Positions 2,021-60,197 are shown, numbered from the stretch's first letter. The stretch: DNA of 64,000 nucleotides from Bacteroidales bacterium (GCA_017519885.1 JAFWRO010000035.1:31427-95426); one strand, 5' to 3'. Numbers and translations are program-made. Notes: a model not told the origin generated them from the letters alone.

Positions 2021-2042
2021 TGCCATTGTGAAAGATTCCCCT

Positions 2043-2050: not shown

Positions 2051-2087
2051 CAGCGGAAATAAACCTATATGGGTATTTCCAGGATAA

Positions 2088-2668: not shown

Positions 2669-2835
2669 CTCAAATCAAGCAAGTGCATAATTTGATGGAT
2701 ATTAAAGACAATTATGGAAAGAATGTACCCTATGTCTCCAATCGGGTTAAGACAAAGGTATCGTCCCCGTAGTTCCTTTGATTCATCGACTTTTGCACTT
2801 GCCAAAGTCGATGAAATTATAAGTTTATATCCTAA

Positions 2836-4223: not shown

Positions 4224-4225
4224 TG

Positions 4226-4984: not shown

Positions 4985-5020
4985 AAAATAAAATCCTGAT
5001 GAATTATAAAAAATGTTGTG

Positions 5021-5028
5021 CAAAGATA
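5021..5028 (-). promoter_or_regulatory. -7 box TATCTTTG (minus strand) for the LuxR-type regulator
   Basis: Plus-strand caaagata lies 37 nt upstream of the ATG at 4984. Confidence 0.5.
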
Positions 5029-5163
5029 TGGTTTTCCTCTGTTTTTGACAACTTTTCTTCTATTTATCTGGATATTATTTTTATTTTCTGTATTCTAATG
5101 ACATTCTTAGATGGCATTCCGATGACAAGATTCTATTATCATTTTCGTGGCATAACCAATCTT

Positions 5164-5600
5164 GGCCAAAACTGGTTATTCTTCGACAGAAGTATGGCCT
5201 TTCTTGGCCAAGATTGGTTATTCTTCGTTCGCTGCATACCCTTTCTTGGCCAAGATTAGTTATGCTGCGGTTGGATAGAGCACTCTGTCGGCCGTCGGAG
5301 TGCTTGCTCCGATTGAGGCATGACCTTTTTCGGCCAAGATTGGTTATTCTCCGTTCGCTGCATACTCTTTTTCGGCCAAGATTGGTTATTCTCCGTTCGC
5401 TGCATACCCTTTCTTGGCCAAGATTGGTTATTCTTCGTTCGCAGCATACCCTTTTTCGGCCAAGATTGGTTATTCTTCGTTCGCAGCATACCCTTTCTTG
5501 GCCAGGATTGGTTATTCTTCGTTCGCAGCATACCCTTTCTTGGCCAGGATTGGTCATGCCGCGATCGAATAAAGCACTCTGTCGAACAACAGAGTGCTTT
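5164..5600. repeat. Tandem array 2: exact 42-bp period, unit GGCCAAGATTGGTTATTCTTCGTTCGCWGCATACCCTTTCTT, closed by a perfect hairpin
   Basis: GGCC starts at 5164, 5206, 5248, 5290, 5332, 5374, 5416, 5458, 5500 and 5542. The terminal hairpin AAAGCACTCTGT-CGAACA-ACAGAGTGCTTT is at 5571-5600. Confidence 0.9.
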
Positions 5601-5615
5601 ATATGATGGTGAATA

Positions 5616-5771
5616 TCAATCCGTAGGATTCCACTGCATGAACCAGCGCTTCTGGTCCTCGTAGGGCATGTTGAAATAACGTGCCTCCTTGTCGAGAGCG
5701 CGCATCTGCTGCATCTCTTCGTTGCTCAGCTCGAAATCGAAGACCTCGATGTTCTCCTGGATGTGAGCGGG
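5616..5771 (-). pseudogene. Aldo/keto reductase C-terminal remnant (about 52 codons, no N-terminal body)
   Basis: The minus-strand translation is PAHIQENIEVFDFELSNEEMQQMRALDKEARYFNMPYEDQKRWFMQWNPTD*. ENI-VFDFELS-EEM is the typical AKR C-terminal motif. The remnant abuts the stop of the next gene. Confidence 0.55.
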
Positions 5772-5772
5772 A

Positions 5773-6237
5773 TTACATATCTTCGACAGTTGTGAACATG
5801 AAATTGGACTCGCGGTGCTTGATGAGCCACTTGCCGTCCTGCTTCACATAGGTGTCGTGATAACGTACGCCGCTCTGGTTTCGCTTGCCATTGCCGATGA
5901 GTGTCACGAAGCAGTAGGAGATGCCTGTGGCCGTATCGCCGTCAATCTCCACCGTCTGCTGACCGTTCAGGTGATAGACCACATCGAACTGAGCGAGATA
6001 ACTGGCGAATGCATTACCAATCTGCTCCTTTCCCTTCATCACCGAGACGTACTCGCCTACCTTTGAGTGCACTTCGGCATCGTCGGTGAACAAGTCCATC
6101 TGCGACTTGACATCCTTCACGTCAGCGAGGTTAGAAAACGTATCCACGAGTCTCTTGAGTGCCAGCTGGTCTTCGGTCTGTGCACTTGCCCATGTCGTGG
6201 TCATCAGGGCCAACAAGATAAACAGAATCTTTTTCAT
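5773..6237 (-). CDS. Secreted SnoaL-like / NTF2-fold protein, 154 aa
   Basis: It has a signal peptide (MKKILFILLALMTTTWASAQ). Its length and the pattern ...FTDDAEV...G.E.I...F...H...I.DG..A..... fit the nuclear transport factor 2-like fold. Confidence 0.65.
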   Translation of the reverse strand: MKKILFILLALMTTTWASAQTEDQLALKRLVDTFSNLADVKDVKSQMDLFTDDAEVHSKVGEYVSVMKGKEQIGNAFASYLAQFDVVYHLNGQQTVEIDGDTATGISYCFVTLIGNGKRNQSGVRYHDTYVKQDGKWLIKHRESNFMFTTVEDM

Positions 6238-6275
6238 AATTTTCTTTTTTTATCGTGATGTATTATTAGATGAAT

Positions 6276-6824
6276 TTAGATGTTCTTGATGAATTTGGCG
6301 GGATTGCCACCTACGATGGTGTTTGGAGCAACGTCCTTTGTGACAACGGCACCGGCAGCTACTACGGCATTCTCGCCGATGGTCACACCAGGCAGGATGA
6401 TGGCACCCACGCCGATCCAGGCATTGCGGCAGATGTGGACGGGCTTGCAGCGCAGCACCATGCGGTTCTGGAAGTCGTGGTTGTCGGTGACGATGCGCAC
6501 GTTGGGACCTATCATCACACCATCGTCGATGGTGATGCCGCCTGCGGCCATACAGGTGAGCGAATGGTTGACAAACACGCCTCTGCCGATCTTCATCTGA
6601 CAGGCGAAATCGATCTGCAACGGGGGCATCAGATAGCTGGTCTGGTCGAGGCTGCCATTGAAGAGCGTCTCTTCGAGCGGACGTATCTGCTCGGGCATGG
6701 GTGCCGTCGTGTTGATCTTGAAACAGATGTTTGCGCAGTCGGTCATGTGCTTGATTGCCTCTGCATATTCGGGTGTCGCCATGTTTACATCGGCACCGGA
6801 GCGAAGTTGTTCGAAAATGTTCAT
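6276..6824 (-). CDS. Sugar O-acetyltransferase (maltose/galactoside acetyltransferase-like, hexapeptide-repeat)
   Basis: It shows left-handed beta-helix repeats (IGRGVFVNH..., IDDGVMIGPNV, IGENAVVAAGAVV) and the C-terminal VGGNPAKFIK. Confidence 0.9.
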   Translation of the reverse strand: MNIFEQLRSGADVNMATPEYAEAIKHMTDCANICFKINTTAPMPEQIRPLEETLFNGSLDQTSYLMPPLQIDFACQMKIGRGVFVNHSLTCMAAGGITIDDGVMIGPNVRIVTDNHDFQNRMVLRCKPVHICRNAWIGVGAIILPGVTIGENAVVAAGAVVTKDVAPNTIVGGNPAKFIKNI

Positions 6825-6855
6825 ATTGATATAGTTTTTTATTGGTCTTGTATAT

Positions 6856-6997
6856 GGTCGCTTTGCTCAAAATTATAAGAAAATTAATTTTAAAATTATC
6901 AAAAGAATATGTCAAAAAAGAATGTCGTTATAAATCCCGACCCGTTTTTCTTATAATTTTTTGTTTTATTTTTTTATAATTTTGAGCTTTGCGACCC
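6856..6997. repeat. Palindromic leader element, copy 2
   Basis: ggtcgctttgctcaaaattataagaaaa ... ttttcttataatttt ... tataattttgagctttgcgaccc. About 45 of the first 50 nt are identical to copy 1. Confidence 0.85.
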
Positions 6998-7020
6998 TGT
7001 TCTTCTTTGTTTTGACGGTG

Positions 7021-7028
7021 CAAAGGTA
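7021..7028 (-). promoter_or_regulatory. -7 box TACCTTTG (minus strand) upstream of element copy 2 and the acetyltransferase
   Basis: Plus-strand caaaggta sits in the same gtgcaaaggta context as at 1861-1871. Confidence 0.5.
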
Positions 7029-7031
7029 CGA

Positions 7032-7064
7032 CAAAAAAGGCAATCCGCCGTTATCCGGATTGCC
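7032..7064 (-). terminator. Rho-independent terminator (minus strand)
   Basis: The stem GGCAATCCG/CGGATTGCC is 9 bp with an 8-nt loop, followed on the minus strand by TTTTTT. Confidence 0.75.
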
Positions 7065-7148
7065 TTGATAGTTTCATATTTTGCCGAAAGCGCTAAAAAT
7101 GCCCATTTAGCTGCTGCTTAGTGCAGCTAAAAGCGTGAGTAAGGACAT

Positions 7149-7655
7149 TTATAAAGATTCGATTTCCTCTATTGTCAGACCAGTAATCTCAGCAATATCT
7201 TCAACTGCAAAGCCCTTGGCCTTCATCTTGCGGGCATTTTCAATATTTGTTTTGAGCACAGCATCGGCCGTATCCTCAAAGTCATCGGCCTTGGACACCC
7301 ATTCGTTCCAATCGGTCTTGGCAAGATAAAGCTCCACCTGTTTCTTCAGCACTGGGATGTCGTTGATGGCTGTGTTATAAAGTTCTCTGTCGTCGATGGT
7401 AGCATAATCATGAACCAGAATGTGACGCATACCTTGTACAAATTTCCATGGTATAGCAGGATGTGCATTCTTGAAAGCTTTAGTCAGCATATAGGCCGCC
7501 TCACCCACTACCTCGATATTTTTCATAACAGAGAAATAGGTGCGCTTATCTTTGACGAGAGATTCGAAAGTGTATCCCTCAATAAGCATCATAACATTCG
7601 CGGAATATTCGACGATATCTTCTAACCGCCCTTTATCCCTCGCTCTTTCTCTCAT
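7149..7655 (-). CDS. hepT: HepT-like (DUF86) RNase toxin of a type VII TA pair, with a C-terminal extension
   Basis: The RX4HXY motif is present as RHILVHDY. It overlaps the MNT gene by 23 nt. The extra tail is ...ENARKMKAKGFAVEDIAEITGLTIEEIESL. Confidence 0.85.
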   Translation of the reverse strand: MRERARDKGRLEDIVEYSANVMMLIEGYTFESLVKDKRTYFSVMKNIEVVGEAAYMLTKAFKNAHPAIPWKFVQGMRHILVHDYATIDDRELYNTAINDIPVLKKQVELYLAKTDWNEWVSKADDFEDTADAVLKTNIENARKMKAKGFAVEDIAEITGLTIEEIESL

Positions 7656-7941
7656 AAATCAAAATTTTATCTCGGTTAGCACTTGCTGCTGCGTACGGGC
7701 GAAGCGTTCCTTCGACAACCAAATCTACTTCGCGACCTAACAGCTCCTGCAAGTCCATCAACATGCCTCCATGAGTGAAGAGCGTGAAAGGCTTGCCAGA
7801 ATAATCGGGAACAAAAAGGATATCAACGTCACTCTTCGGTGTCTCCTCGCCACGGGCAAAGGATCCAAACAGCCATGCCTTCAGGACAGGTTGTGTCTTG
7901 AAGTAGTCGGCTATAGTCTGTTGTATCAGTTGGTTGCTCAT
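7633..7941 (-). CDS. mntA: MNT-type nucleotidyltransferase antitoxin
   Basis: It carries the GSxxRGxxxxxSDxD motif as LFGSFARGEETPKSDVDIL, is 102 aa long, and lies upstream of and overlapping hepT. Confidence 0.9.
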   Translation of the reverse strand: MSNQLIQQTIADYFKTQPVLKAWLFGSFARGEETPKSDVDILFVPDYSGKPFTLFTHGGMLMDLQELLGREVDLVVEGTLRPYAAASANRDKILIYERKSEG

Positions 7942-7966
7942 AAGCGAATCCTTTTAGAATGTGGGG

Positions 7967-7974
7967 ACAAAAAT
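7967..7974 (-). promoter_or_regulatory. Candidate -7 box TATTTTTG (minus strand) for the TA operon
   Basis: Plus-strand caaaaata lies about 26 nt upstream of the MNT ATG. Confidence 0.4.
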
Positions 7975-8048
7975 ACGAAATTATTTTGAATAATGGCGCA
8001 TTTTTGGCACAAAAAATGCAAAAATGGGTTCAAATTTTGCCGAAAGCG

Positions 8049-8858
8049 TTATTTCTGCCGGTATTCCGAGGGCGATTTGCCCAAAACCCGCTTCGTGTAA
8101 CGCGAGAAATGCGAGATATTCTCGAAGTTCATGAGGTCCGAGACCTCGCCGAGCGTCTTGGTGGTGTCGTTGAGCAACGACACCAGTTCGAACGCCGCAT
8201 AGAACTGAATCCATTGCGAAGCAGGCAATCCCGTCATCGTGCGGCACACCTGCGAGAGATACTTCGGCGTGATGCAAAGACGGTCGGCATACCACGCCAC
8301 CTCGCGCTCGGTCAGCACGTTTTGCTGCACCAGGGTGAGGAACCGCAGGAAGAGGCTGGCCGTAAAGTCCGACGTCTCCATCTGTGACAGGCCGTGCTGG
8401 CACACCGTCCAGAGGTCGAAGAGGAAGATCTGCATCACACGCCCCAGCACTTCGCGCTTGAACGTCGATTCGGGTTGGGCCAATCGGCTGCGAAAGAGAG
8501 AGAAGTCGGCTTCCATCAGCCTCAATCCCTCGTCATCGAGGTGGATGGAGGGATTGATGCGGATGAAGATGAAGCCCTTCGAAGCCCAGATCATCTCGGG
8601 ATTGTATTGCTGGAGGAACGTGGGCGAAGCCAACAGGACTTCGCCCTCAAAATCGTCGGAATAGGTCACATCCTGAATTGAATTGGACATCTGCCAGATG
8701 GCCAAGTCGCCCTTTCGCGAACAGAAACCGTTCTTGCCATCGGAGAAGGTCATCGTGCCCTGCTTCACCAGGACATGTACATGATAGTCGGCGATGAAGT
8801 CGGAAGGCATCCGTCCATCGGCCGTGCTGATAAGATTGCATCCGTAAAGTAATTCCAT
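8049..8858 (-). CDS. AraC-family transcriptional regulator (cupin-like N-terminus + HTH)
   Basis: The C-terminus is ...LSQVCRTMTGLPASQWI....FENISHFSRYTKRVLGKSPSEYRQK. Confidence 0.9.
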   Translation of the reverse strand: MELLYGCNLISTADGRMPSDFIADYHVHVLVKQGTMTFSDGKNGFCSRKGDLAIWQMSNSIQDVTYSDDFEGEVLLASPTFLQQYNPEMIWASKGFIFIRINPSIHLDDEGLRLMEADFSLFRSRLAQPESTFKREVLGRVMQIFLFDLWTVCQHGLSQMETSDFTASLFLRFLTLVQQNVLTEREVAWYADRLCITPKYLSQVCRTMTGLPASQWIQFYAAFELVSLLNDTTKTLGEVSDLMNFENISHFSRYTKRVLGKSPSEYRQK

Positions 8859-8871
8859 GATCGTTGATGTT

Positions 8872-10134
8872 TTATTTGACCGAAGCGCAACGTGCCTCGT
8901 AGAAGCTGCGGAAGTCGCTCCAGCGGTAATAGGGATAATTTGTGGTGGGCACAGGCAGACTGGCTTCGCAACCGTTGAGCAGGCATTTCACGAGCACATC
9001 GTCCGCCCCACCTTTGCCACGATAGAAGATGAGCTGGATGTTCGAGGCCTTGCAGGTGTTCCAGTTCTGGTAGCAGTTCTTCACCTCGTAGGGATCCTCG
9101 GGATCGCGGTCGGCGCCATTGATGCCCATCAGGACGGTGAGGGGACCGATGCAGGTGTCGTGTCCGAAACGCAGGTCAGCCACGCGCTTCACGCGGCCCG
9201 AGATGACAGCGTCGGCCTTGGCGATGATGTCCTCGAGGATGGGGATCATCTCGTATTGCGGACCGAAGACCCACGAATAGGAGCCGAGGTTGGAAGCCTC
9301 CCATTCGCCGACCAACTCCTCGTCGCTGACGATGCCGTCCATCATACCCTCGTGACCGATGCTGGGCAGCGAGGTGTAGAGGTTGAGGAGTTCGCTGCCG
9401 ATGCGACCAGGATTGCCCTTGAGGCCCTCGGTGCTGGTGAAGACGCGGGCAGTGATGTCCTGACGCAAGGTGCTCTCGTGCTTGAACTGGTCGCGATGCT
9501 GTTCGAAGCGCGGACGCACTCTCGGGAACTCACGTCGGGCAGGATTCTGCCTGTCGGTGGGCACCACGCCATCGAGCGTGAAGCGCGATGACTGTTCGCG
9601 AATCTCGAGCTTCGGGTTGCACTGGACAAGCTCCTGGCAGAAGGCCGACATACTGATCACGCAACGTCCCGACAACGAGGAGATGGCGAGCACGTCACCA
9701 CCTTTTTTGAACACCTCGGGGAAACGGTTGTACATGGTGCGTGCAATGCCCTGGTGCTGCTGCCAGCCCACTTCGGTGAGTTCGCTCACACCCGTCATCA
9801 GTTCGTCCTTGACGGCCATGAAGCTGTCGCAGAACTTCTCGCCGCGAGGCGTGAGCTGATGCTGCTGGCGTGCCGTGGTGAGCAGGGTGTCGAGGTAATG
9901 GTAGAGATGGTCGCTCCAATAGTAGCGCGAGCCATGACGTGCGTAATGGCTGATGTAGAATGCCTTGTAGCCCTTGGGCGCCTTGGTGAGTCGGACGTCC
10001 TCCTGCCTGTAGGGATAGTCGTTGCCATACGCCTTGCGCGGATTGGCCTTGAGCTGGTCGAGGGCGGAAACACCCTGCGCCTCCATCGTGACGGCAAGGA
10101 GACTGAAAAGGAAAAGAATGAAGAACTTTTTCAT
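8872..10134 (-). CDS. Secreted histidine phosphatase family protein, branch 2 (histidine acid phosphatase / MINPP-like)
   Basis: It has a signal peptide, the catalytic motif RHGSRY, and a downstream FGHDT (HD motif). Confidence 0.8.
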   Translation of the reverse strand: MKKFFILFLFSLLAVTMEAQGVSALDQLKANPRKAYGNDYPYRQEDVRLTKAPKGYKAFYISHYARHGSRYYWSDHLYHYLDTLLTTARQQHQLTPRGEKFCDSFMAVKDELMTGVSELTEVGWQQHQGIARTMYNRFPEVFKKGGDVLAISSLSGRCVISMSAFCQELVQCNPKLEIREQSSRFTLDGVVPTDRQNPARREFPRVRPRFEQHRDQFKHESTLRQDITARVFTSTEGLKGNPGRIGSELLNLYTSLPSIGHEGMMDGIVSDEELVGEWEASNLGSYSWVFGPQYEMIPILEDIIAKADAVISGRVKRVADLRFGHDTCIGPLTVLMGINGADRDPEDPYEVKNCYQNWNTCKASNIQLIFYRGKGGADDVLVKCLLNGCEASLPVPTTNYPYYRWSDFRSFYEARCASVK

Positions 10135-10182
10135 GGAGGTAATATTTATAAAAGGAAAAATGACGGGGCGAAGCTCATTGCT

Positions 10183-11277
10183 TCACCCCACGATATACTT
10201 GCTGCCCGGAAGCAGCGAGATGAGCCAGGTTACCAGCGCACTGCATGCGTATGTGAGCATCGCGATGACCGGGATGGCAAGCCATACGGGAAGCGATGGA
10301 TTAGCCACGTCGCCAGCGATGATCCACTCCGAAATCGGGATGAGGAAGAAGATGTGCATCAGGTACATGCCGAAGGTCAGCTTGCTGATGCGCGTGATCC
10401 AGGCGGGAGCCTCCTGGATGCAGGAGAAGAGCAGGAACGCGCCGAACGTGGTGATGAGGACGTTGAGCGTACAGAACTCCCACGACCATTCCGCCATCGG
10501 GGTATCCAGCATCTGTCCGGGAACGCCTTTCCACCAGAAGCTCCATGCCGTGAACGCAGCACCGAAGAGGAAACACAGGCTACCCACCTTGATGCGCTTC
10601 GAGCGTGACCAGTCGAGGTGCACACGGATGTAATGCGCCAACACCAGGTAGCCCAGATAGCCCGAGCAGTACCACAGTGCGGAGAAGTTGTTCCAGAAGC
10701 ATTCGCCCCACAGTTCAGGCGACACGAAGCGATGGAGCCAGGGGATGAGCGTCGAGAAGGCAAAGATGCCGAGGAACGTCAGTTCGTCCTTCGCGCTGGC
10801 CTTTTCGAGCCAGGGCGACACCACGGGGATGATGAGGTAGATGCTGATGAGCGGATACATAAACCACAGATGGCCTGCGATGGGCGGGAAGTTGAAAGGC
10901 ACCATCTTCAGGTCGTGCAAGGCCTGTTCCTGCGTTGTGCCTCCCCAAGCCAAAGGCAGAACGGCATAGAGCAGCAGGAAGCACACAAAGGGTGGCAGGA
11001 TGCGCAGGAAGCGCCGGCGATAGAACTGCCCCATGGTCATACCTTCGCGCATCGGGACGAGCAGGAAGGCTGACACGATCATGAACAGCGGCACGGAGAT
11101 ACGCCCGAAGAAACCATCATAGATGGATACCCACAGGCGGTTGCTCTCGTTGGCCAGCATCGTATAGGCATCGTGGTCAACGTAGAAACATTCACTCGCG
11201 TGGACGACCATCACCAGAAGGCAGGCCACCACGCGAATGTAATCGACAAAGGCAATACGGGGAGAAGGAGTTTTCAA
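10183..11277 (-). CDS. Acyltransferase-3 family membrane O-acyltransferase
   Basis: It shows RIAFVDYIRVVACLLVMVVHASE and about 10 TM segments. The only possible start is a TTG that sits inside the heptamer repeat. Confidence 0.85.
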   Translation of the reverse strand: MKTPSPRIAFVDYIRVVACLLVMVVHASECFYVDHDAYTMLANESNRLWVSIYDGFFGRISVPLFMIVSAFLLVPMREGMTMGQFYRRRFLRILPPFVCFLLLYAVLPLAWGGTTQEQALHDLKMVPFNFPPIAGHLWFMYPLISIYLIIPVVSPWLEKASAKDELTFLGIFAFSTLIPWLHRFVSPELWGECFWNNFSALWYCSGYLGYLVLAHYIRVHLDWSRSKRIKVGSLCFLFGAAFTAWSFWWKGVPGQMLDTPMAEWSWEFCTLNVLITTFGAFLLFSCIQEAPAWITRISKLTFGMYLMHIFFLIPISEWIIAGDVANPSLPVWLAIPVIAMLTYACSALVTWLISLLPGSKYIVG

Positions 11278-11330
11278 TTAACAATTAACAATTAATAATT
11301 AACAATTATCAATTAACAATTAACAATTAA
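11275..11330. repeat. 8 x 7-bp tandem repeat CAATTAA (complement TTAATTG)
   Basis: caattaa caattaa caattaa taattaa caattat caattaa caattaa caattaa. It contains the upstream gene's TAA stop (11320-11322) and the downstream gene's TTG start (11275-11277). Confidence 0.9.
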
Positions 11331-12477
11331 GCAGGGCGTCGGCCAAGGCTTCGAGCTGCGGGATGTCAGCCTCCTTCATCGACGACTTGATGGTCACCAT
11401 AGGCTCAACGATCCTGACGTTCTTCATCGGTTCGAGCAGGGCCTTCATCGCCTTGCCTGCCGAGGGAGCCCAACTGCCGTTCTCCACGATGGCAACGGCG
11501 CGGTTCTGGTAGGCCTTCATCTGCAACTTCCAAAGGAAGAAGTGCATGGGTGGGAAGACGTCGGCATCATAGGACGAAGCACAAACCACCAGTTTGCCCA
11601 TACGGAAGGCATCCTCGATGGCCTCGGCCATATCGTCGCGGCAGAGGTCGGCGACAGCCACCTTGCCTGCACCCTTTGCCTCAAGGATCTCGGCAAGCTT
11701 CTCAGCCACCTTGGCGGTGTTGCCATGGATGCTGGCATGAGCCACCAGCACGCCCTTGGTCTCGACATCGTACTTGCTCCAGATATTGTAGAGACGCAGT
11801 GCCTCGGCCAGCTTCTCACCGGTGAGGATAGGGCCGTGCAATGGGCAGATGGTCTCAATGTCGAACTTGCCCGCCTTCTTGAGTGCGGTGCTGACAGGAG
11901 CACCATACTTGCCGCAGATGTTGAAGTAGTAGCGGCGAGCCTCGCATGCCCAGTCGTCGGGATCGGCATCCTTCACGCCGAACTTGCCGAATGCATCGGC
12001 CGAGAAGAAGACCTTCTCCTCGGGGCACCAGGTCATGATGACCTCGGACCAATGCACCATCGGAGCGGTGATGAACTGCAGGGTGGTCTGACCCAACGAA
12101 AGCACATCGCCTTCCTTCACGGCCTTGGTGCCAGCAGCGTTGAACTTCTCGTCGAACTGTGCAGCAAACTGCAGTGCCTTGGCCGAAGCCACGATGACAG
12201 CCTCGGGATAGCGGGCACGGAAAGCACCCACCGAACCACTGTGGTCGGGCTCGTAATGCTGTGCGATGAGGTAGTCGGGCTTGCGGCCATCGAGGGCCTT
12301 CTCGAGCTTGTCGAGCCACTCGTCGGTCTTGCGCTTATCGACGCTATCCATCACGGCAACCTTCTCGTCGAGGATAACGAAGCTGTTGTAACACATGCCT
12401 TCCGGCAAATCATACTGGCTCTCGAAGAGCTCCAATTCGGGATCGTCACACCCGATGTACTTGATCTTTTCTGTCAT
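11320..12477 (-). CDS. Flavodiiron protein (FprA-like; metallo-beta-lactamase-like + flavodoxin domains)
   Basis: It has the diiron motif HYEPDHSGS and a C-terminal flavodoxin-like half (VLVAHASIHGNTAKVAE...). Confidence 0.8.
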   Translation of the reverse strand: MTEKIKYIGCDDPELELFESQYDLPEGMCYNSFVILDEKVAVMDSVDKRKTDEWLDKLEKALDGRKPDYLIAQHYEPDHSGSVGAFRARYPEAVIVASAKALQFAAQFDEKFNAAGTKAVKEGDVLSLGQTTLQFITAPMVHWSEVIMTWCPEEKVFFSADAFGKFGVKDADPDDWACEARRYYFNICGKYGAPVSTALKKAGKFDIETICPLHGPILTGEKLAEALRLYNIWSKYDVETKGVLVAHASIHGNTAKVAEKLAEILEAKGAGKVAVADLCRDDMAEAIEDAFRMGKLVVCASSYDADVFPPMHFFLWKLQMKAYQNRAVAIVENGSWAPSAGKAMKALLEPMKNVRIVEPMVTIKSSMKEADIPQLEALADALLNC

Positions 12478-12494
12478 ATTTTTTTGGGTTTTTT

Positions 12495-12539
12495 AGTTAT
12501 CTGAGTTATCCGAGTACTCCGATTATTCCGAGTACTCCG
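12495..12539. repeat. 5 x 9-bp tandem repeat (AGTAYTCCG family)
   Basis: agttatctg agttatccg agtactccg attattccg agtactccg. The same family occurs at 46079-46130. Confidence 0.85.
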
Positions 12540-12550
12540 GAACCAATCTC

Positions 12551-13363
12551 TCATAGGCAAGGCAGCGCGCGGAGGTGTGCCTCGATGGTCTTGCCCAGGC
12601 GGATGTGGCCGGCATTGTTGGGGTGCAGGCGGTCGTAGCGCACGGTCTCGGGCTTGGGTTCGGGCTCGGCGAAGTACACGCCGTGCTCAGGCTCCATCGG
12701 GAAGAGGCCCGAGTCGCGATAGAGGTCGATGCAGGGCACAGCCCAATACTGGCAAGCCTGGCGCAGCACGTCCATATACTCCTCGATGTAGTGTCCCTGC
12801 ACGTTGGTGAAGTCCTCATCGGGCTGCACGTTGAACTTGCCCTTGGCGGGGTCGCTGAAGTTGGCATAGGCACGATGGATGGGCGTCATCACGATGATCT
12901 GCTTGGTCGGGTAGTTATGCTTGAGCCAGGAGAGGCACATGTTGATGCGGCCGCAGAAGGTCGTGTCGTTCATGCACCACTCGCGATGACGGGCAGCTAC
13001 CATCTTGCCGTTGCGGTTGCAGATGGTGTCGCGTTCGGTGAAGAAACGGCCGATGGGGATGCCGTGGTTATAGTCGTTGGTGCCAGCCCAGATGAAGATG
13101 GCATCGATGGTGGTGCTGTCGGTCTGCTGCATCAGCTTCGCCTTCTCCAGTATCTGGTGCCACTGGTGGCCGCTTCGGGCATAGACGCGCGGCTCGATGC
13201 CGAGCGAATCGCGCAGGTAGTCATAGTAGTGGTAATTGGCGGCACGATTGTTGGGGTCGGTCATCGAATCGCCCAGGAAGGCGCAACGCTTGCCTTGCCA
13301 CTGTGCCATGCAGGCAAATGCAGTAAAAAGGCAAAAGAGTAGGGTCAAAAGATTCCTTTTCAT
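12551..13363 (-). CDS. Secreted SGNH/GDSL hydrolase (esterase)
   Basis: It has a signal peptide, block I FLGDSMTD, block III WAGTNDY, and a C-terminal DRLHPN. Confidence 0.85.
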   Translation of the reverse strand: MKRNLLTLLFCLFTAFACMAQWQGKRCAFLGDSMTDPNNRAANYHYYDYLRDSLGIEPRVYARSGHQWHQILEKAKLMQQTDSTTIDAIFIWAGTNDYNHGIPIGRFFTERDTICNRNGKMVAARHREWCMNDTTFCGRINMCLSWLKHNYPTKQIIVMTPIHRAYANFSDPAKGKFNVQPDEDFTNVQGHYIEEYMDVLRQACQYWAVPCIDLYRDSGLFPMEPEHGVYFAEPEPKPETVRYDRLHPNNAGHIRLGKTIEAHLRALPCL

Positions 13364-13409
13364 GTCAATATTCTATCTTGTTACAAATGCTATTTGTCAA
13401 TAAGCGGTG

Positions 13410-13417
13410 CAAAGATA
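13410..13417 (-). promoter_or_regulatory. -7 box TATCTTTG (minus strand) upstream of the SGNH gene
   Basis: Plus-strand gtgcaaagataatc lies about 47 nt upstream of the ATG at 13363. Confidence 0.5.
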
Positions 13418-13515
13418 ATCATTTTGTTTGCTTGCTCCAAATTTTTCGGGGGAAAAATGAAAAATGAAAGGCGCGGCATCGTAGGATGTCGCGTCTTCAT
13501 TGAATTTTACTAATA

Positions 13516-15759
13516 TTATAAATGTATCAAAGCGCTTGGAAGGCCGTCACACCTGGCACCCACGACGCAGGGACCTGTAAGGCTGCGAAGACGAATGGTG
13601 GCTCGACCATTGGCAGCCTGGATGCGACGGGAGCCTGTGGTGGTGCCCTGGTTGACGAGCAATTCGCCATCGCCGGCAATCGAGAACTCAATCCAATCGC
13701 TGCTGTCGAGACAGCGGATGCCATTGGCGTCGTAGAGCTGGGCCTCGATCAGGTCGGGGGCAATCCGCGTGAGTCGCAGTTCGGCAGGCTTTCCCCAATG
13801 TTCGGTCTGATATTCGAAGGTAATCTCGTCGGACAAATCCTTGGCGACGGCCTTGATGGTGTTGGTGCCTCGTTGCAGGACGACGTTCCAATGGAAGCCC
13901 TGGGCGGGATAGTCCTCCATGTTACGCTTTCGTTTGCCTACCGACTGGCCATTGACGAAGAGCTCTACCTCGGGCTGATTGGAATAGACGAGGACCTCAC
14001 GGGGTTCGCCTTCCTCGCCCCAACGCACAGGCCAGGAATGTCCGTAGATGTGAAGCATCGGCTGGCTTGCCCAATAACTTTGGAACACGTAATAACTCTC
14101 CTTGGGCGTGCCATCGCGCTGCATGATGCCCTTCTGGTTGACGTAAGGAATAGGATTCGAGGGACGCAGCGGGGTGCAGAAATCCTTGAAGGTCCAGAAT
14201 GCCGATCCCGTCAGGTTGGGCATCCTGGCCTGTTCCTTCAGATGCCAATCGAAGAGACGGACAATGTAGCTCTCCGACCAGTCGCCTTTCTTGTCACCGA
14301 CCTCGATGTCGAAGCCCGACTCGGCATGTCGGCCCGCATGACTGTCGCCTCCCCATTCGGCATGCAGGAAATGGGGGAAGCGTGCGATGGCAGCCTCCTC
14401 CATCTCGCGATAATCGGTGAAGCGTCGGCTGTACCAACCTGCCCAAATCGACGGCGAATAGATATCGACGATGTCGGCACAGAAGTCGCAGCGACGAATG
14501 ACCGTCTTTCGCAGGGGGTCGAGCCGATGGGCGTGATCGTTGAGCGACGTCATCAGAGAACGGATACCCAGCGTATCGATGATGGTAGAGAAATCGCCTG
14601 GCCAGTCATTTTCGTTGCCGAGGCCCCAAAGGATGATGCTCGGATGATGACGATGCTGAGTGATCATGTTTTCGAGCATTCGATGAGCCTGCTGCTGATA
14701 CTCTTCTCCCCCTACTCCACCACGGCACCAGGGAATCTCTTCCCACACGAGGATGCCGAGCGAGTCGCAGAGGTCGAGCACGAGGTCGCGCTGCTGGTAA
14801 TGGCCCAAACGGATGAAGTTGGCACCCATGTCCTTGATCTGCTTCATCTCCTGTCGGATCTGCTCATCGGTCATAGCGGCACCCACTCCGGCATGGTCCT
14901 CATGGCGATGTGTACCCTTCAAGAGCAGACGGCGACCATTGAGGAAGAAGGGCCCATGCTCGCGGAACACATAACTGCGGAAGCCAAAGCGACGCTCGAT
15001 GACCTGTTGGCCAAAAGTGATACGAAGCGTATAGAGCGATGGCGAATCCACATCCCACAACGTAGGTTTCCTGATGCGGATAGGCAGACCGATGCCCCCT
15101 TCATAGACCGTCTTTCCATCGGGAGACACGATGCTGCAACTGACGTCCCCGATATCAGATGGCGAAGTTTTCACACTTACCTTGTCGCCCTCCACATCGA
15201 TGCGGACATCGCTGATGTAGCGCTCGGGCAGATACACCAGATGAACGGGGCGATAGAGTCCTCCATAGAGGCAGAAGTCGCTCATGTCGGAAGGAATCAT
15301 CTCCACATCACGACTGTTGTCGCAACGCACGGCAATGGGATGCCGGCCATTGCCGACTTCGGTGATATCGACCGTCCAACGGTCGTAACCGCCGACGTGC
15401 GAACCCATCAGACGGCCATCGACATAGACCTGCGTCTTCTGGCCTGCACCTTCGAACTCCAGCAAGGTATGTCCCCCAGCATAGGGATTTGCCACCTCGA
15501 TGGTGGTGCGATACCAGGCAGCACCCTGATAGTAGTTCACGTCGGGATCGACACCATCTTCGGCATTATAGCAATGGGGAAGCGTGACGTCCTGCCACAA
15601 CGGGACGCTTTCGGGTTTCCCTTCCTTCACGGGACGCTCCACCTCCCAGACGTTTGCCATGTCGGTGCGAACGAATTGCCATTGGGACAAATTGACCTGT
15701 GCACCAGCTGTCACAGCCAGCACACAGGTCGAAAAACAAAGCACACACAATCGTTTCAA
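13516..15759 (-). CDS. Glycoside hydrolase family 2 (beta-galactosidase/glucuronidase-like)
   Basis: Motifs are NFIRLGHYQQ, WGLGNENDW (acid/base) and HAEWGGDSH (nucleophile region). It has a signal peptide and a TTG start at 15757-15759. Confidence 0.9.
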   Translation of the reverse strand: MKRLCVLCFSTCVLAVTAGAQVNLSQWQFVRTDMANVWEVERPVKEGKPESVPLWQDVTLPHCYNAEDGVDPDVNYYQGAAWYRTTIEVANPYAGGHTLLEFEGAGQKTQVYVDGRLMGSHVGGYDRWTVDITEVGNGRHPIAVRCDNSRDVEMIPSDMSDFCLYGGLYRPVHLVYLPERYISDVRIDVEGDKVSVKTSPSDIGDVSCSIVSPDGKTVYEGGIGLPIRIRKPTLWDVDSPSLYTLRITFGQQVIERRFGFRSYVFREHGPFFLNGRRLLLKGTHRHEDHAGVGAAMTDEQIRQEMKQIKDMGANFIRLGHYQQRDLVLDLCDSLGILVWEEIPWCRGGVGGEEYQQQAHRMLENMITQHRHHPSIILWGLGNENDWPGDFSTIIDTLGIRSLMTSLNDHAHRLDPLRKTVIRRCDFCADIVDIYSPSIWAGWYSRRFTDYREMEEAAIARFPHFLHAEWGGDSHAGRHAESGFDIEVGDKKGDWSESYIVRLFDWHLKEQARMPNLTGSAFWTFKDFCTPLRPSNPIPYVNQKGIMQRDGTPKESYYVFQSYWASQPMLHIYGHSWPVRWGEEGEPREVLVYSNQPEVELFVNGQSVGKRKRNMEDYPAQGFHWNVVLQRGTNTIKAVAKDLSDEITFEYQTEHWGKPAELRLTRIAPDLIEAQLYDANGIRCLDSSDWIEFSIAGDGELLVNQGTTTGSRRIQAANGRATIRLRSLTGPCVVGARCDGLPSALIHL

Positions 15760-51587: not shown

Positions 51588-51998
51588 AGCAAGCATTCTG
51601 ACGGCCGACAGGATGCTTGCTTCTATATGATAAGGTACTCTGTCGGCCGTCTGAGTGTTTCCGCAAAAGGAGGAAGCATTTTGTCGGCCGTCAGGATACT
51701 ATTTCCCGCAAGAGAATGTACTCTGTCGGCCGTCAGAGTGTTATTTCCCGTAGGAGCAAGTACTCTGTCGGCCGTCTGAGTGTTATTTCTCGTAGGAGCA
51801 AGTACTCTGTCGGCCGTCACGATGCTATTTCTCGCAGGAACAAGTACTCTGTCGGCCGTCACGATGCTATTTCCCATAGATGCAAGTACTCTGTCGGCCG
51901 TCAGAGTGTTATTTCTCGCAGGAGCAAGTACTCTGTCGGCCGTCAGAGTACTGTCGCAAAAAGAGGAAGCATCCTGTCGGCCGTCAGAATGCTTCCTC
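51588..51998. repeat. Tandem array 3: about 10 units of 41-42 bp, consensus GTACTCTGTCGGCCGTCAGAGTGTTATTTCTCGTAGGAGCAA
   Basis: GGCC starts at 51603, 51645, 51686, 51728, 51770, 51812, 51854, 51896, 51938 and 51979. The first and last units are strong hairpins. It is the same family as array 1. Confidence 0.9.
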
Positions 51999-56715: not shown

Positions 56716-56723
56716 TATCTTTG
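56716..56723 (+). promoter_or_regulatory. -7 box TATCTTTG for the partner-switching operon
   Basis: ttaTATCTTTGcacccg lies about 41 nt upstream of the ATG at 56764. Confidence 0.5.
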
Positions 56724-56763
56724 CACCCGTAAACGGCATGAAATGGGTACCTCGTAAGATTCC

Positions 56764-58671
56764 ATGGAAATGAAGACCACAAAACTAACAACCAGGCTGA
56801 GCAGTATAGCGGTGCTGATAGTGGCGGCCTTGCTGCTGGAACTGACTACCGCCATGCAATACTTCTCGACACGAACAGGCATCACTCGCCAAATGGTCGA
56901 GATGGCTCATCGCGACCTGAGCGAATCAGATCGCACGGCTGAACTGAAACGCGAGGTGGAGCTCACCGTTGCGCAGATGCTGCCTACCTTGGGGCGACTC
57001 ACTTCACAGCTTGCCTCCGACTCTTTGCACCTCTACATCGACGAGATTCTGGGGCAACAAGATGAGATTGTAGGCTTTGACTTTTGCCTCGTGAAGGGTA
57101 AGAATGGCAAGCCCGACGGCATCTACATCTACAAGGATGACAAGACAGGGGCGCCTACCGAACACCACATTGACTTCGACTTCACGAAACGCTCATGGTA
57201 CCAAGAAGGCATCAAATGTGATGGTTTCTGGAGCGAACCCTATATGAGCAACTATAAGGTGATACTGATGTGCACCTATTCACGGCCTGTGCGCGATGCA
57301 GAGGGACAGATTGTGGCCATACTTGGTGCTGACGTCCCTATGCGTGACGTATCGGCCCTTGCTTCACAACTTTTCGAAGACCAACAACGCTCCCTCTTGC
57401 CCATCGTATTATTGCACGGCCTCGGGCTTCTGCTTCTTGCCTTCATCATCGTTCGCAGTGTCAGAAGCATCAGGCGTCTGCAAGTGGTCGGTGCCGAGAA
57501 GGAACGAATCGCCAACGAACTGTCTATTGCAAGTCGCATCCAACAGGCGATGTTGCCCAAGGCCGCCCCCCTGCCTGAGCATGGTAACGTGGAACTCTCC
57601 GCAGCACTCACCCCGGCGCGCGAAGTTGGCGGCGACTTCTACGACTTTGTCGTGCGAGACGAAAAACTATTCTTCTGCATAGGTGATGTCTCGGGCAAGG
57701 GAGTCCCTGCGGCGCTTGTGATGGCTATGGCGATTTCGGCCTTCCGTATGATGTCGGAACATGAATCGGCTCCAGAGCGCATCATTGCCCAGATAAACAA
57801 CTCGATGGCTCGCGACAACGACTACAACATGTTCATCACCCTCTTCATTGGCGTGCTTGACCTCAAGACAGGGAAGTTACTCTATTCGAATGCCGGACAC
57901 AAGCCTCCGATGATTGACAAACAGCCACTCCCAGTGACACCTAATCTTCCCGTCGGCATACTCCCGGAATTCGACTTCGCCCTGCAAGAGACAACAATAA
58001 AGAAGGGTTCCACCCTCTTCCTCTACACCGACGGACTGACAGAGGCTGAGAACGAAACCCATGAGCAGTTTGGCCTAGAACGGATGCAAGCAATCATCGA
58101 CAGTGCCGTGCAAGAAGAAGTTTCGCCAGAGGTATTCATTGATCGAATGACCGAGGCAGTACACGACTTCGTGGGCGAAACCGAACAAAGCGACGACCTG
58201 ACGATGCTAGCCTTACGCTATCAATCAAAGCAGGACTGCACAGCAGACATCGAACTTCAGCATCACCTCACCCTGCCCTGTGACGTAGCCCAAACGACAC
58301 GCCTGGGAGAATGGATAGAAGGGATTTGCGAGACTGCCAGTCTGAGCGCATCGGCTACTATGCAAATCAATCTCGCCATTGAAGAGGCAGTGGTTAATGT
58401 GATGAAATATGCCTATCCTGACAATTCGAACGGCGAGGTGCAGATTGATGCGTCGATTGACCACGAGTGGTTGAAGTTCATCATTACCGATGCTGGTCGG
58501 CCCTTTGACCCCACAACTTCGGATGACGTAGACACCTCACTTTCGGCTGAAGAACGCAACATCGGCGGACTGGGAATCCACCTTATGCGCAAAATGATGG
58601 ACAGCATCAACTATGAACGTATTGATGGACACAATGTACTTACGATGGGGAAAAAGATTGTAAAAGGATAA
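56764..58671 (+). CDS. Membrane sensor fused to a SpoIIE/PP2C-type phosphatase and an RsbW/SpoIIAB-like GHKL kinase domain
   Basis: Two TM segments flank an extracytoplasmic domain. The PP2C part has GGDFYDF, GDVSGKGVPAALVMA and YTDGLTEA. The GHKL part has NLAIEEAVVNVMKYAY and GGLGIHLMRKMMD. Confidence 0.85.
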   Translation: MEMKTTKLTTRLSSIAVLIVAALLLELTTAMQYFSTRTGITRQMVEMAHRDLSESDRTAELKREVELTVAQMLPTLGRLTSQLASDSLHLYIDEILGQQDEIVGFDFCLVKGKNGKPDGIYIYKDDKTGAPTEHHIDFDFTKRSWYQEGIKCDGFWSEPYMSNYKVILMCTYSRPVRDAEGQIVAILGADVPMRDVSALASQLFEDQQRSLLPIVLLHGLGLLLLAFIIVRSVRSIRRLQVVGAEKERIANELSIASRIQQAMLPKAAPLPEHGNVELSAALTPAREVGGDFYDFVVRDEKLFFCIGDVSGKGVPAALVMAMAISAFRMMSEHESAPERIIAQINNSMARDNDYNMFITLFIGVLDLKTGKLLYSNAGHKPPMIDKQPLPVTPNLPVGILPEFDFALQETTIKKGSTLFLYTDGLTEAENETHEQFGLERMQAIIDSAVQEEVSPEVFIDRMTEAVHDFVGETEQSDDLTMLALRYQSKQDCTADIELQHHLTLPCDVAQTTRLGEWIEGICETASLSASATMQINLAIEEAVVNVMKYAYPDNSNGEVQIDASIDHEWLKFIITDAGRPFDPTTSDDVDTSLSAEERNIGGLGIHLMRKMMDSINYERIDGHNVLTMGKKIVKG

Positions 58672-58697
58672 TTGTTAATTATTAATTGTAATTTTAA
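58670..58697. repeat. 4 x 7-bp tandem repeat AATTGTT family
   Basis: aattgtt aattatt aattgta attttaa. It begins inside the TAA stop of the preceding gene. Confidence 0.75.
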
Positions 58698-58703
58698 AAT
58701 ATT

Positions 58704-59009
58704 ATGATGAAAACCACATTCAAAGAAGAGAAAGAACATCTGGTAATGGCCTTCGATGGCCGACTAGACACCGCCGCCTCATCGCAGACCGAGGAGGATA
58801 TGCGCGTACTTTATGACTGCGAGGGTCGTGACATCATCCTTGACTGCACAAACCTGCAATACATCTCGAGTAGCGGATTGCGCCTCTTCCTGGGCCTGAT
58901 CAAGAAAGCTCGTCCCAAAGGAAGCCACGTCTATCTCACAGGCGTAAGCGATGACCTGCGCCAAGTATTCGACGAAACTGGATTCACCGCCCTTTTTGAA
59001 ATGCTATGA
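58704..59009 (+). CDS. STAS-domain anti-sigma-factor-antagonist-like protein (RsbV/SpoIIAA family)
   Basis: It is 101 aa, and DCTNLQYISSSGLRLFL holds the conserved phosphorylatable Ser context. Confidence 0.85.
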   Translation: MMKTTFKEEKEHLVMAFDGRLDTAASSQTEEDMRVLYDCEGRDIILDCTNLQYISSSGLRLFLGLIKKARPKGSHVYLTGVSDDLRQVFDETGFTALFEML

Positions 59010-59566
59010 CAAACGAAGAAATCGAACGTCTGAAGGCAGAGAACGCATCGCTGCGTCAAGAACTCGAACGGTTGAAAAATGAAATCATCCGTCTGGTGAG
59101 TCGTAACCTCGATATCTCTGAACGACTGGAGGAGGATGTGGAACTTCGCCGTCGCGCCGAGGTAGCACGAGAACTATTCGAAGGCAACCTTGAGCGCCAA
59201 CGCAATGCCGACCTGCAGGACGACGCCCAACTTATGGGCCTCATTGAGCTGCGCGTCGAAGCTGAACGTCCGCACCTGAAAGCAGACTTCAGTTCCGCCG
59301 ACCTTGCCCATCTGCTCGGCGTGAGCCAGGAACGTCTCAATCGTCTTTTCCGCCACCAGTCTATCCACCGCACGCCCGAAGCCTACATCGACAACCTGCG
59401 CGTGCTGGCAGCTCTGCGTATGCTTCGCGAAAAGCCTCAGTGGACCATAGCTGCAATCGCAGAGGAGTGCGGACTTGGGAATATACGTACGTTGCAACGC
59501 CGCGTCCAGGAGGTGATTGGCATGACTCCTGCACAATATAGGCAGATGTTTGTCCCTGAAGAGTAA
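59006..59566 (+). CDS. Coiled-coil + AraC-type HTH domain protein
   Basis: The N-terminal heptads run EIERLKAENASLRQELERLKNEIIRL. The C-terminus is LAHLLGVSQERLNRLF...IAAIAEECGLGNIRTLQRRVQEVIGMTPAQYRQ. Its ATG overlaps the STAS stop (ATGA). Confidence 0.75.
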   Translation: MTNEEIERLKAENASLRQELERLKNEIIRLVSRNLDISERLEEDVELRRRAEVARELFEGNLERQRNADLQDDAQLMGLIELRVEAERPHLKADFSSADLAHLLGVSQERLNRLFRHQSIHRTPEAYIDNLRVLAALRMLREKPQWTIAAIAEECGLGNIRTLQRRVQEVIGMTPAQYRQMFVPEE

Positions 59567-59590: not shown

Positions 59591-59655
59591 ACACGCCCCC
59601 AAAGCGACAGATTCAGAAGCTTGTCCATCTGGTTGTCGCTATATTGGGGGCGTGT
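59591..59655. other. Long interrupted hairpin after the HTH gene
   Basis: ACACGCCCCCAA-AGCGACA [24-nt loop] TGTCGCT-ata-TTGGGGGCGTGT gives 19 paired bases. Confidence 0.6.
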
Positions 59656-59711
59656 CGTCATATACGAAGCAAAATACAAGATAAATATTTGGAGAATGAA
59701 GAAATAGACCC

Positions 59712-59719
59712 TACCTTTG
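59712..59719 (+). promoter_or_regulatory. -7 box TACCTTTG
   Basis: cccTACCTTTGcaccag lies 50 nt upstream of the ATG at 59769. Confidence 0.45.
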
Positions 59720-59768: not shown

Positions 59769-60197
59769 ATGAAAAAGTCTATTTTCTTCCTCTTCGCCCT
59801 CGTACTGACAAGTTGCCTTCCTCTTCAGGCCGACAACGACCAAGTAATCACCTTCGACCGTCTGCCCGCTACCGCCCAGGCAATGTTGAATCAAAACTTT
59901 GCCGACAAAGTTCCCCTGATAATCACTGCTGACTGGGACGACTACAAGGTGATGTACGCAAATGGCGAAAAAGTAGAGTTCGACAAAAGAGGCAACTGGA
60001 GGGATATCGAATGCAAGGCAAGCCAAGTGCCCACTGATCTGATTCCCGCACAGATTACAGCCAATGTGAACGCCACATTTCCTGGCTCGTCAATCACCGA
60101 AATTGATCGTGACCACTCAGGCTACAGCGTACAACTCAGCAACGGCTTGGAACTGGAATACAACAGACGTTTCCAAGTGATTGAGGTCGATGACTAA
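59769..60197 (+). CDS. PepSY-like (beta-lactamase-inhibitor-like fold) secreted protein
   Basis: It has a lipoprotein-like signal and a duplicated pattern: LPATAQAMLNQNF...VEFDKRGNWRDIEC / IPAQITANVNATFPG...LELEYN. Confidence 0.7.
   Translation: MKKSIFFLFALVLTSCLPLQADNDQVITFDRLPATAQAMLNQNFADKVPLIITADWDDYKVMYANGEKVEFDKRGNWRDIECKASQVPTDLIPAQITANVNATFPGSSITEIDRDHSGYSVQLSNGLELEYNRRFQVIEVDD

Follow-up and report, generated by a model that had tools for sequence, protein, structure and literature searches.

Partner switching is a textbook mechanism of sigma-factor control. In the Bacillus systems RsbU/RsbW/RsbV-sigmaB and SpoIIE/SpoIIAB/SpoIIAA-sigmaF the regulated factor is encoded last, and in the operons rsbV-rsbW-sigB and spoIIAA-spoIIAB-sigF the protein that binds this factor directly is encoded immediately upstream of its target. 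The present study concerns an operon that encodes the same three protein families, likewise with the presumed output last, in a stretch of 64,000 nucleotides from a Bacteroidales bacterium (GCA_017519885.1 JAFWRO010000035.1:31427-95426, hereafter the window, in which positions are counted from the first letter). Unlike in the Bacillus switches, there is no sigma factor, and the last gene encodes a DNA-binding protein of AraC type with a helix-turn-helix (HTH) domain, following the genes of a membrane sensor and of a STAS protein. Whether the three genes form one partner-switching signalling unit with a transcription activator instead of a sigma factor as output is, in our estimate, an evenly balanced matter, and the evidence on each side is given below.

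Besides the sigma-factor switches, the kinase/STAS pair is known as a portable module whose other outputs are a diguanylate cyclase, a glycosyltransferase, a toxin and a STAS protein with a winged HTH (wHTH) that acts as a repressor. HsbR/HsbA of Pseudomonas, CrsR/CrsA of Shewanella and SypE/SypA of Vibrio fischeri consist of a regulator in which kinase and PP2C phosphatase are fused and of a STAS partner; HsbA binds FlgM and the diguanylate cyclase HsbD, and the target of SypA is unknown (PMC6482189, PMC5085249, PMC8256260). The CapK/CapS system controls transcription with no sigma factor involved: the conserved Ser of the STAS protein is phosphorylated by an RsbW-like GHKL kinase, and CapS is a DNA-binding STAS-wHTH repressor (Chambers et al., bioRxiv 10.64898/2026.02.02.703251). 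The VapKSC operon described in the same work encodes kinase, STAS and effector in this order, and the unphosphorylated STAS protein binds the product of the third gene with the conserved Ser in the interface. A glycosyltransferase of Anabaena is a further non-sigma output (PMC13555669).

Our literature search found nothing that joins STAS proteins or partner switching with AraC regulators, nor any partner switching in Bacteroidota, and we know of no group-3 sigma factor of the sigma-B/sigma-F type in this phylum. The initial annotation of the window had regarded the fusion of kinase and phosphatase in cis as noteworthy, which cannot be maintained since SypE, HsbR and CrsR are already characterised (PMC8256260, PMC6482189). 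It had also found no characterised system to match the locus; this stands in so far as the locus belongs to neither the CapKS nor the HsbR subtype and has no sigma factor, but it went too far in that non-sigma outputs, including CapK/CapS, had been described. Fused kinase/phosphatase proteins and non-sigma outputs are thus already known, and what appears to be new is the pairing of kinase and STAS with a separate AraC-type transcription factor.

The operon lies on the plus strand at 56716-59566, from a -7 promoter box of the Bacteroidota type (TATCTTTG, 56716..56723, by sequence reading and regex scan) to the stop of the HTH gene. It holds the open reading frames (ORFs) of the sensor (56764..58671, 635 aa), the STAS protein (58704..59009, 101 aa) and the HTH protein (59006..59566, 186 aa), all of them on this strand and as the initial annotation had placed them. 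The last two overlap in the reading gctATGAcaa, where the ATG of the HTH gene takes 59006-59008 and the TGA of the STAS gene 59007-59009. Since the regex scan found no internal -7 box on the plus strand before the one at 59712, the three genes are probably a single transcription unit. According to k-mer analysis TAtcTTTGCA is the dominant conserved motif 5' of 49 orthologous sensor genes; a search for an autoregulatory motif by k-mers in these upstream regions returned the -7 box and A/T tracts alone.

The domain content of the sensor agrees with its earlier description as a membrane protein that joins a SpoIIE/PP2C phosphatase and an RsbW/SpoIIAB-like GHKL kinase in one chain (ORF call, Pfam, NCBIfam and hydrophobicity). 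Two hydrophobic segments, at about aa 7-30 and 209-235, bracket an MCP-like PDC/dCache domain (aa 92-195, 5.9e-15, Pfam), so that the N-terminal architecture is transmembrane segment (TM1), periplasmic PDC/Cache, TM2, and Pfam gave no Response_reg match in the N-terminus. They are followed by the SpoIIE/PPM (PP2C) phosphatase domain at aa 299-486 (57658..58221, plus strand; PF07228, 2.2e-50) and by the RsbW/SpoIIAB-type GHKL Ser-kinase domain HATPase_c_2 at aa 505-630 (58276..58653, plus strand; PF13581, 4.1e-26), and NCBIfam gave partial matches to RsbW, SiaA and SpoIIE. In all 55 sensor orthologues examined, the metal-binding residues D291, D308, D423, D477 and D478 of the phosphatase are invariant, as are the N-box (E540/E541/N545), the G1 box (D576/G578) and the G2 box (G601/G602/G604) of the kinase. 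Because all catalytic residues are kept in 55/55 sensors, both enzyme domains appear to be under selection.

The STAS protein is a single domain of the anti-sigma-antagonist type (ORF call; Pfam STAS PF01740, 1.4e-18; TIGR00377, 63.4 bits against a cutoff of 53.45), with SpoIIAA and RsbV as the nearest solved relatives. The conserved Ser context YISSSGLR, noticed already in the initial annotation, is located at aa 53-60, and Ser56 aligns to the phospho-acceptor Ser58 of SpoIIAA (1th8_B); its codon, that of the predicted phospho-acceptor, is at 58869..58871 on the plus strand. The motif Y-I-x-S-S-G-L-R (S56-S57-G58-L59-R60) is invariant in 66 of 66 STAS copies examined.

For the HTH protein, the earlier reading as an N-terminal coiled coil with a C-terminal AraC-type domain, overlapping the STAS stop by ATGA, was borne out by ORF call, Pfam, AF2 and Foldseek. 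Pfam assigns aa 100-180 to HTH_18 (1.7e-16, 60.7 bits against a cutoff of 33.6) and also reports HTH_AraC (51.4 bits against 26.6), with weak bZIP/HALZ leucine-zipper matches at the N-terminus. The AF2 model (pLDDT 84.5) has a helix at aa 3-69, a second at 73-87 and a seven-helix DNA-binding domain of AraC/MarA type at aa 97-180, to which the Foldseek matches are confined (3mn2, MarA 1bl0, SoxS 7w5w, Rob 1d5y, AraC and AdpA). The heptad leucines L9/L16/L23/L30, invariant or nearly so, make up a zipper of four heptads, and conservation within the protein is highest at aa 31-69, in copies with and without the adjacent sensor-STAS module alike. The family is narrow, with 10 representatives at E <=1e-30 in an exhaustive search of 1.84 billion representatives. 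Like MarA, SoxS and Rob, the protein has a complete bipartite AraC DNA-binding domain (TM-score about 0.65-0.78 to the target) and no cupin or ligand domain; such a small AraC-type protein is probably controlled by its availability and not by a ligand. Unlike them, it carries a 90-residue N-terminal extension with the zipper and the very conserved helix at aa 31-69, its gene is part of a STAS/kinase operon, and instead of a marbox its candidate site has three TGTCGC hexamers, the distance of which from the promoter is fixed.

Compared with the systems introduced above, the operon has the proteins expected of a partner switch, namely a HATPase_c_2 kinase, a single-domain STAS protein with its Ser and a PPM/SpoIIE phosphatase; the operon contains no sigma factor for which the kinase could be the anti-sigma factor. 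The absence of a sigma factor gene from the neighbourhood, as the initial annotation had it, extends to all genes checked: by Pfam none was found among 20 window ORFs; the genes tested upstream, the PepSY-like gene downstream and ten further small ORFs are all something else, and none was found among the later genes as read from their translations. An unlinked sigma target for the kinase is possible. In contrast to the Bacillus switches, kinase and phosphatase are here one membrane protein with Cache input, and the gene order is kinase, STAS, output instead of STAS, kinase, output. The locus resembles HsbR, CrsR and SypE in having PP2C and RsbW-like kinase on one polypeptide, here predicted to act on an adjacent STAS protein, an arrangement kept here in 58 loci. 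However, those regulators are cytoplasmic and receive their input by receiver (REC) domains via phosphorelays, whereas the sensor here has two TM segments, a periplasmic Cache input and no REC, and none of them is paired with the gene of a DNA-binding transcription factor. CapS carries its wHTH on the STAS chain itself; the DNA-binding protein of the present operon is a chain of its own, of AraC type and not winged. CapK/VapK have the architecture HTH-STAS-GHKL or STAS-GHKL, are activated by single-stranded DNA and lack a phosphatase, whereas here the kinase is fused to Cache and PP2C. CapK/CapS and VapKSC flank immune operons, and the proteins of the window trio (sensor, STAS, HTH) have no PADLOC match. 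The gene order of VapKSC is shared, with the HTH protein in place of the PIN nuclease as presumed effector.

To see how far the three-gene order is conserved, as the initial annotation had proposed to check across Bacteroidota, the HTH alignment was scanned against one genome per species, which gave 79 loci, all in Prevotellaceae. PP2C, kinase, STAS and HTH are adjacent on one strand and in fixed order in 58 of these species-representative loci, and two more are cut by contig ends; three of the others are partial or degenerate, and 16 have no module within 10 kb of the HTH gene. Chance is far from sufficient to explain an arrangement that recurs in about 60 genomes at species level. The order is kept although the flanks differ and the identity falls to 35-40% for the sensor and 36-43% for STAS, with 61-93% for HTH. 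In 53 of 67 pairs HTH starts at most 30 nt beyond the STAS stop, with a negative distance in 22, and the overlap of stop and start codons is preserved across two deeply diverged STAS classes and with fused as well as unfused kinases. STAS and kinase co-diverge (mirror-tree, rho 0.75), and the HTH clades match the STAS classes, with no nearest-neighbour class mismatch and no swaps; yet HTH is too conserved for an informative mirror-tree or class-swap test. A distant lineage, with an HTH protein 56% identical, has a stand-alone RsbW-like kinase of 130 aa, a STAS gene and the HTH gene 2 nt later, with no PP2C nearby. Because kinase, STAS and HTH occur unfused in this lineage, these three appear to be the widest conserved core, in which the gene families would parallel rsbW, rsbV and sigB with HTH in the sigma position. 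Taken together, sensor, STAS and HTH very probably constitute a conserved functional unit.

Two loci of the survey show unusual arrangements. In L049 an RsbW-like kinase, a STAS protein and a REC-PP2C protein, a variant of the module with REC input, head the same co-directional cluster as the HTH gene (282-13002); they are followed by a WD40 protein, a Y_Y_Y histidine kinase, a second histidine kinase, a TonB-dependent receptor, HTH and another TonB-dependent receptor, so that parts of a partner switch and of two-component systems are combined and HTH sits between outer-membrane receptors. In L057 the whole trio is present twice, 8.1 kb apart (2041-5628 and 10281-13739), with identical STAS and HTH proteins, which could be an assembly artefact or a recent duplication; the two copies flank a gene for a sigma factor of the extracytoplasmic function (ECF) group (8198-8683, minus strand), the sole sigma gene seen near any trio.

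The complementary survey, seeded with STAS in metagenomes, yielded 80 loci with STAS proteins 47-87% identical to that of the window. The gene after STAS encodes a protein of about 350 aa with a RelA/SpoT domain in 35 loci, HTH in four and another protein, often on the opposite strand, in 27, and it is undeterminable in 14. Before STAS there is a fused PP2C-kinase sensor in 24 loci, a stand-alone kinase in 18, a kinase match with an upstream sequence too short to tell fused from stand-alone in nine and no kinase in 21, with eight undeterminable. The RelA/SpoT genes start overlapping or nearly overlapping the STAS stop, after a fused or unfused kinase and STAS, as in L092 with a fused dCache-HAMP-PP2C-kinase, STAS and then RelA/SpoT. 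The genome RUG12181 combines a trio with an HTH paralogue that lacks a module and with a cassette of kinase, STAS and RelA/SpoT in which the STAS stop and the RelA/SpoT start overlap. As the nearest STAS relatives often precede RelA/SpoT instead, the module is not dedicated to HTH, and the slot after STAS behaves as a place for alternative effectors.

These sister cassettes, in which the kinase is stand-alone or fused to Cache-HAMP-PP2C, occur at L065:3997-5791, L088, L090-L094, L100 and about 30 other loci, and we found no literature on them. Their RelA/SpoT protein matches the PADLOC candidate defence family PDC-S33 (8.4e-15), and the cassette may be a VapKSC-like effector cassette. Apart from these, a CitMHS/SLC13-type anion transporter of about 599 aa with TrkA_C domains is encoded directly 5' of a stand-alone STAS gene in 13 of the metagenome loci counted above as having no kinase before STAS, with none between the two genes (including L107, L109 at 4190-5989, L112 and L113), which recalls the SulP-STAS fusions but as separate genes.

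Between the HTH gene and the next gene there is a possible site of action for the HTH protein, to which the initial annotation did not refer. The tripartite element GCGACA-N24-TGTCGC-N13-TGTCGT at 59604..59658 (plus strand; regex and position weight matrix, PWM) is the sole copy in the 64-kb window, and its general form is GCGACA-N24-TGTCGC-N13-TGTCGY, with copies at, for example, L005:2083, L050:7085, L056:8456 and L173:6675 and about 45 others. The regex has 36 copies in 2.04 Mb of fetched sequence versus 0 in shuffles, and 32 of the 36 are exactly 55 nt long. In all 33 unique regex copies a -7 box TAnnTTTG starts 53 or 54 nt past the element, and in the window the box TACCTTTG (59712..59719, plus strand, regex scan) starts 53 nt past it. 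The PWM, which excludes the -7 box, found 51 copies, 49 of them in HTH-gene loci, one in the window and one in the trio locus L087, and a -7 box is at +52 to +55 in 47 of the 51. No PWM copy occurs in about 0.55 Mb of STAS loci without HTH, in the paralogue loci L167-172 or in the other 60 kb of the window. The element is found less than 500 nt downstream of the HTH gene in 22 non-redundant sources (20 genome loci, L087 and the window). By eye it was also seen after HTH in the distant lineage of L173, with one hexamer mismatch and the same 53-nt spacing.

The genes driven by element-bearing promoters would be those of PepSY-like proteins in 13 cases (11 genome loci, L087 and the window), lipoproteins of 520-800 aa in nine, C11 peptidases in six, Hcp/TssD in two, and small secreted proteins. 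In the window this probable target is the gene of a PepSY-like secreted protein of 142 aa (59769..60197, plus strand; PF11396, 2.4e-25). The element also stands before the operon of sensor, STAS and HTH in three species, which appears as autoregulation like that by the sigma-B-dependent promoter of rsbV-rsbW-sigB, and the output would in these species resemble the Bacillus switches also in this respect.

When an upstream element of fixed geometry is found clustered around the gene of a transcription factor, this usually marks the operator of that factor, and for this reason we consider it likely that an HTH dimer binds the element and activates its promoters. The alternative, that the 55 bp belong to the upstream gene as its terminator or an RNA structure, or are bound by a different regulator of Prevotellaceae, draws on the ability of GCGACA and TGTCGC to pair, on internal hairpins with z < -2 in 8 of 29 copies and a T-rich tail in 12 of 29, and on a sampling bias: every HTH locus was retrieved with the HTH gene as its anchor, so that the association of element and HTH rests on the control sets. 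However, the distance to the box is fixed, most copies show no hairpin beyond the hexamers (mean z -1.2), the third TGTCGC stands at a fixed distance outside any stem, the control sequence is free of the element and Rfam has no family that matches it. The hairpin/terminator reading, with support inconsistent across copies, was set aside, and we judge it improbable that the element is something other than the HTH operator. Since a candidate operator and target promoters exist, the HTH protein is a credible output of the pathway, and it probably serves as the transcriptional output at the TGTCGC promoters.

Together these observations suggest the following scheme. On sensing a ligand, the periplasmic Cache domain would tip the balance between two cytoplasmic activities of its own chain, the PP2C phosphatase and the RsbW-type kinase, and these would determine whether Ser56 of STAS is phosphorylated. 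Translational coupling would cause STAS and HTH to be made in a fixed ratio. Unphosphorylated STAS would bind the leucine-zipper/AraC protein and hold it in one activity state, and phosphorylation would release it as VapS releases VapC. The free HTH dimer would then bind the tripartite element about 53-108 bp upstream of the -7 box and lead to activation, of the PepSY-like gene just downstream here and of genes for C11 peptidases, lipoproteins, Hcp and sometimes of the operon in other species. We give a direct, phosphorylation-controlled capture of HTH, by STAS or by the kinase taken jointly, about the same chance of being right as of being wrong. The fuller version, in which the captured and released protein is also the sole recogniser of a TGTCGC promoter class for secreted proteins, C11 peptidases and Hcp, is offered more tentatively.

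For the coupling step, binding of HTH by STAS seems favoured, because the STAS gene directly precedes, and is coupled to, the third gene in every variant, and because rsbW-sigB, spoIIAB-sigF and vapKSC encode the direct binder immediately upstream of the target. The initial annotation favoured the Bacillus-style wiring, by which the kinase domain is the anti-factor that sequesters HTH at the membrane until dephosphorylated STAS displaces it, with HTH in the place of sigma-B or sigma-F. The RsbW/SpoIIAB-like kinase domain, as seen in the partial NCBIfam matches, and the conserved core of kinase, STAS and HTH would fit this wiring, and sequestration of a transcription factor at the membrane is mechanistically simple. 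Nevertheless, the gene immediately 5' of HTH is always that of STAS and not that of the kinase, which in the three operons named is the position of the direct binder; moreover, the divergence of HTH correlates least with that of the kinase (rho 0.35), and HTH is still about 70% identical where the kinase is down to about 36%. Capture by the kinase is accordingly a distinctly improbable version.

Several observations weigh against this scheme as a whole. The HTH genes that lack the module within 10 kb occupy at least seven unrelated contexts and at least eight clades, among them a starch-utilisation cluster and places after an M23 peptidase, after GH16 and between TonB-dependent receptors. L056, whose flanks are those of the trio locus L005 (C11 peptidase upstream, POR downstream), is a clean deletion of sensor and STAS with HTH kept; a STAS remnant is retained in L055 and L034. 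In a test of relaxed constraint the module-less copies show no relaxation in the N-terminus or any other region, so the conservation of the N-terminus is independent of an adjacent module, and more distant helix+AraC paralogues with 33-36% identity stand alone. HTH, at 61-93% identity versus 36-100% for STAS and kinase, tracks their divergence weakly (rho 0.35-0.42). The nearest STAS relatives precede a RelA/SpoT gene about nine times more often than HTH, the element is within 10 kb in only 35 of the 79 HTH genome loci, and the sole STAS-HTH fusion obtained with a concatenated STAS+HTH query, P0322, is a singleton with truncated STAS.

The persistence of HTH without the module, the deletion in L056, the solitary paralogues and the lack of regional relaxation would suit a rival reading in which the three genes are co-transcribed without physical coupling. 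In this reading HTH is a local activator of adjacent secreted-protein genes and sometimes of the operon, and the STAS switch has its target elsewhere in the genome, for instance in a transporter, a different enzyme or a sigma factor of the ECF or primary type; HTH would then control the expression of the module or share its regulon. Sensor-STAS pairs without a co-directional third gene do exist, many of the other genes downstream of STAS being on the opposite strand, and in lineages with the element in front of the operon, linkage at the level of transcription could be enough to account for the co-inheritance. On the other hand, the overlapping stop and start codons have been kept through the divergence of the STAS classes and of the kinase architectures, the slot after STAS is taken by alternative regulatory effectors, the VapKSC precedent points to direct binding, and apart from the ECF gene of L057 there is no linked sigma gene. 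Overall we consider co-transcription without coupling rather unlikely. The proposal that the output of the module is the HTH protein and not a sigma factor gains from gene order, tight spacing, the unfused kinase-STAS-HTH lineage and the candidate operator, whereas its linkage is not obligate, as the module-less copies and the deletion in L056 demonstrate.

The module-less copies do not form one paralogous subfamily, being scattered over the clades, and this explanation was rejected. The copies in the starch-utilisation cluster of several Prevotella species (GH77, GH97, HTH, pullulanase, cyclomaltodextrinase; L001-L004, L028, L029 and L048) are about 72% identical and have short intergenic gaps, with no module or TGTCGC element nearby. 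Ten longer HTH relatives found in a Rosetta-stone search carry HTH domains only. P0322 (L176:266-1105, 279 aa, on a metagenome contig of 2.4 kb) was not counted as a fusion since its STAS part lacks the invariant C-terminal GF..LF; an in-frame deletion or a fault of assembly is its probable origin.

Prevotellaceae dominate the rumen and many human guts, and their regulation is almost unstudied. If capture of HTH by the switch is correct, it would describe a signalling route in this family, ordinary transcription factors would join the list of exchanged partners, and the switch would be without precedent in having a separate DNA-binding transcription factor as its exchanged partner. It would also be one instance of a general design of kinase, STAS and third-gene slot, with HTH here and a RelA/SpoT-type enzyme in the sister cassettes, which suggest that the same logic may gate nucleotide-messenger or toxin-like enzymes. 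The circuit lends itself to testing, as it comprises a defined sensor, a single phospho-site at Ser56, a 186-aa regulator, a 55-bp candidate operator and PepSY-like or C11 peptidase genes as reporters.

As for the surroundings of the operon, the genes that flank it in the window have housekeeping functions or encode secreted proteins. Those tested with Pfam between 40.4 kb and the operon, ten in number, include a TonB-dependent receptor, DUF4876, DUF6850, Met-zincin, S46 peptidase, a BspA-type leucine-rich repeat (LRR) protein, a GH2-like hydrolase, a cyclophilin and a 61-aa ORF without Pfam match. After the PepSY-like gene, the ORF translations up to the window end read as the protein L19, acetate kinase, phosphotransacetylase and pseudouridine synthase. 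Among 56 trio loci PepSY-like is the only recurrent extra neighbour, directly after HTH in 12, and the other flanks vary. Over the locus, identity is 99-100% to three GTDB species-representative contigs, which belong to metagenome-assembled genomes of uncultured rumen Prevotellaceae/Bacteroidales (RUG465, RUG11585), and all relatives found come from rumen or gut Prevotellaceae. A scan for sigma-70 promoters and terminators was set aside, the model being inapplicable to Bacteroidota promoters. Elsewhere in the window, positions 1-8000 have a G+C content of 0.40-0.48 versus 0.52-0.60 from 8 kb on and encode a HepT-like toxin, DUF4143, a ThiF-family protein and a SnoaL-like protein; this part may be a mobile or defence islet. 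Between the genes of the BspA-type LRR and the GH2-like proteins, a 42-nt tandem repeat of 7.5 copies with 81% matches at 51635-51949 accounts for the odd repetitive ORFs in that interval.

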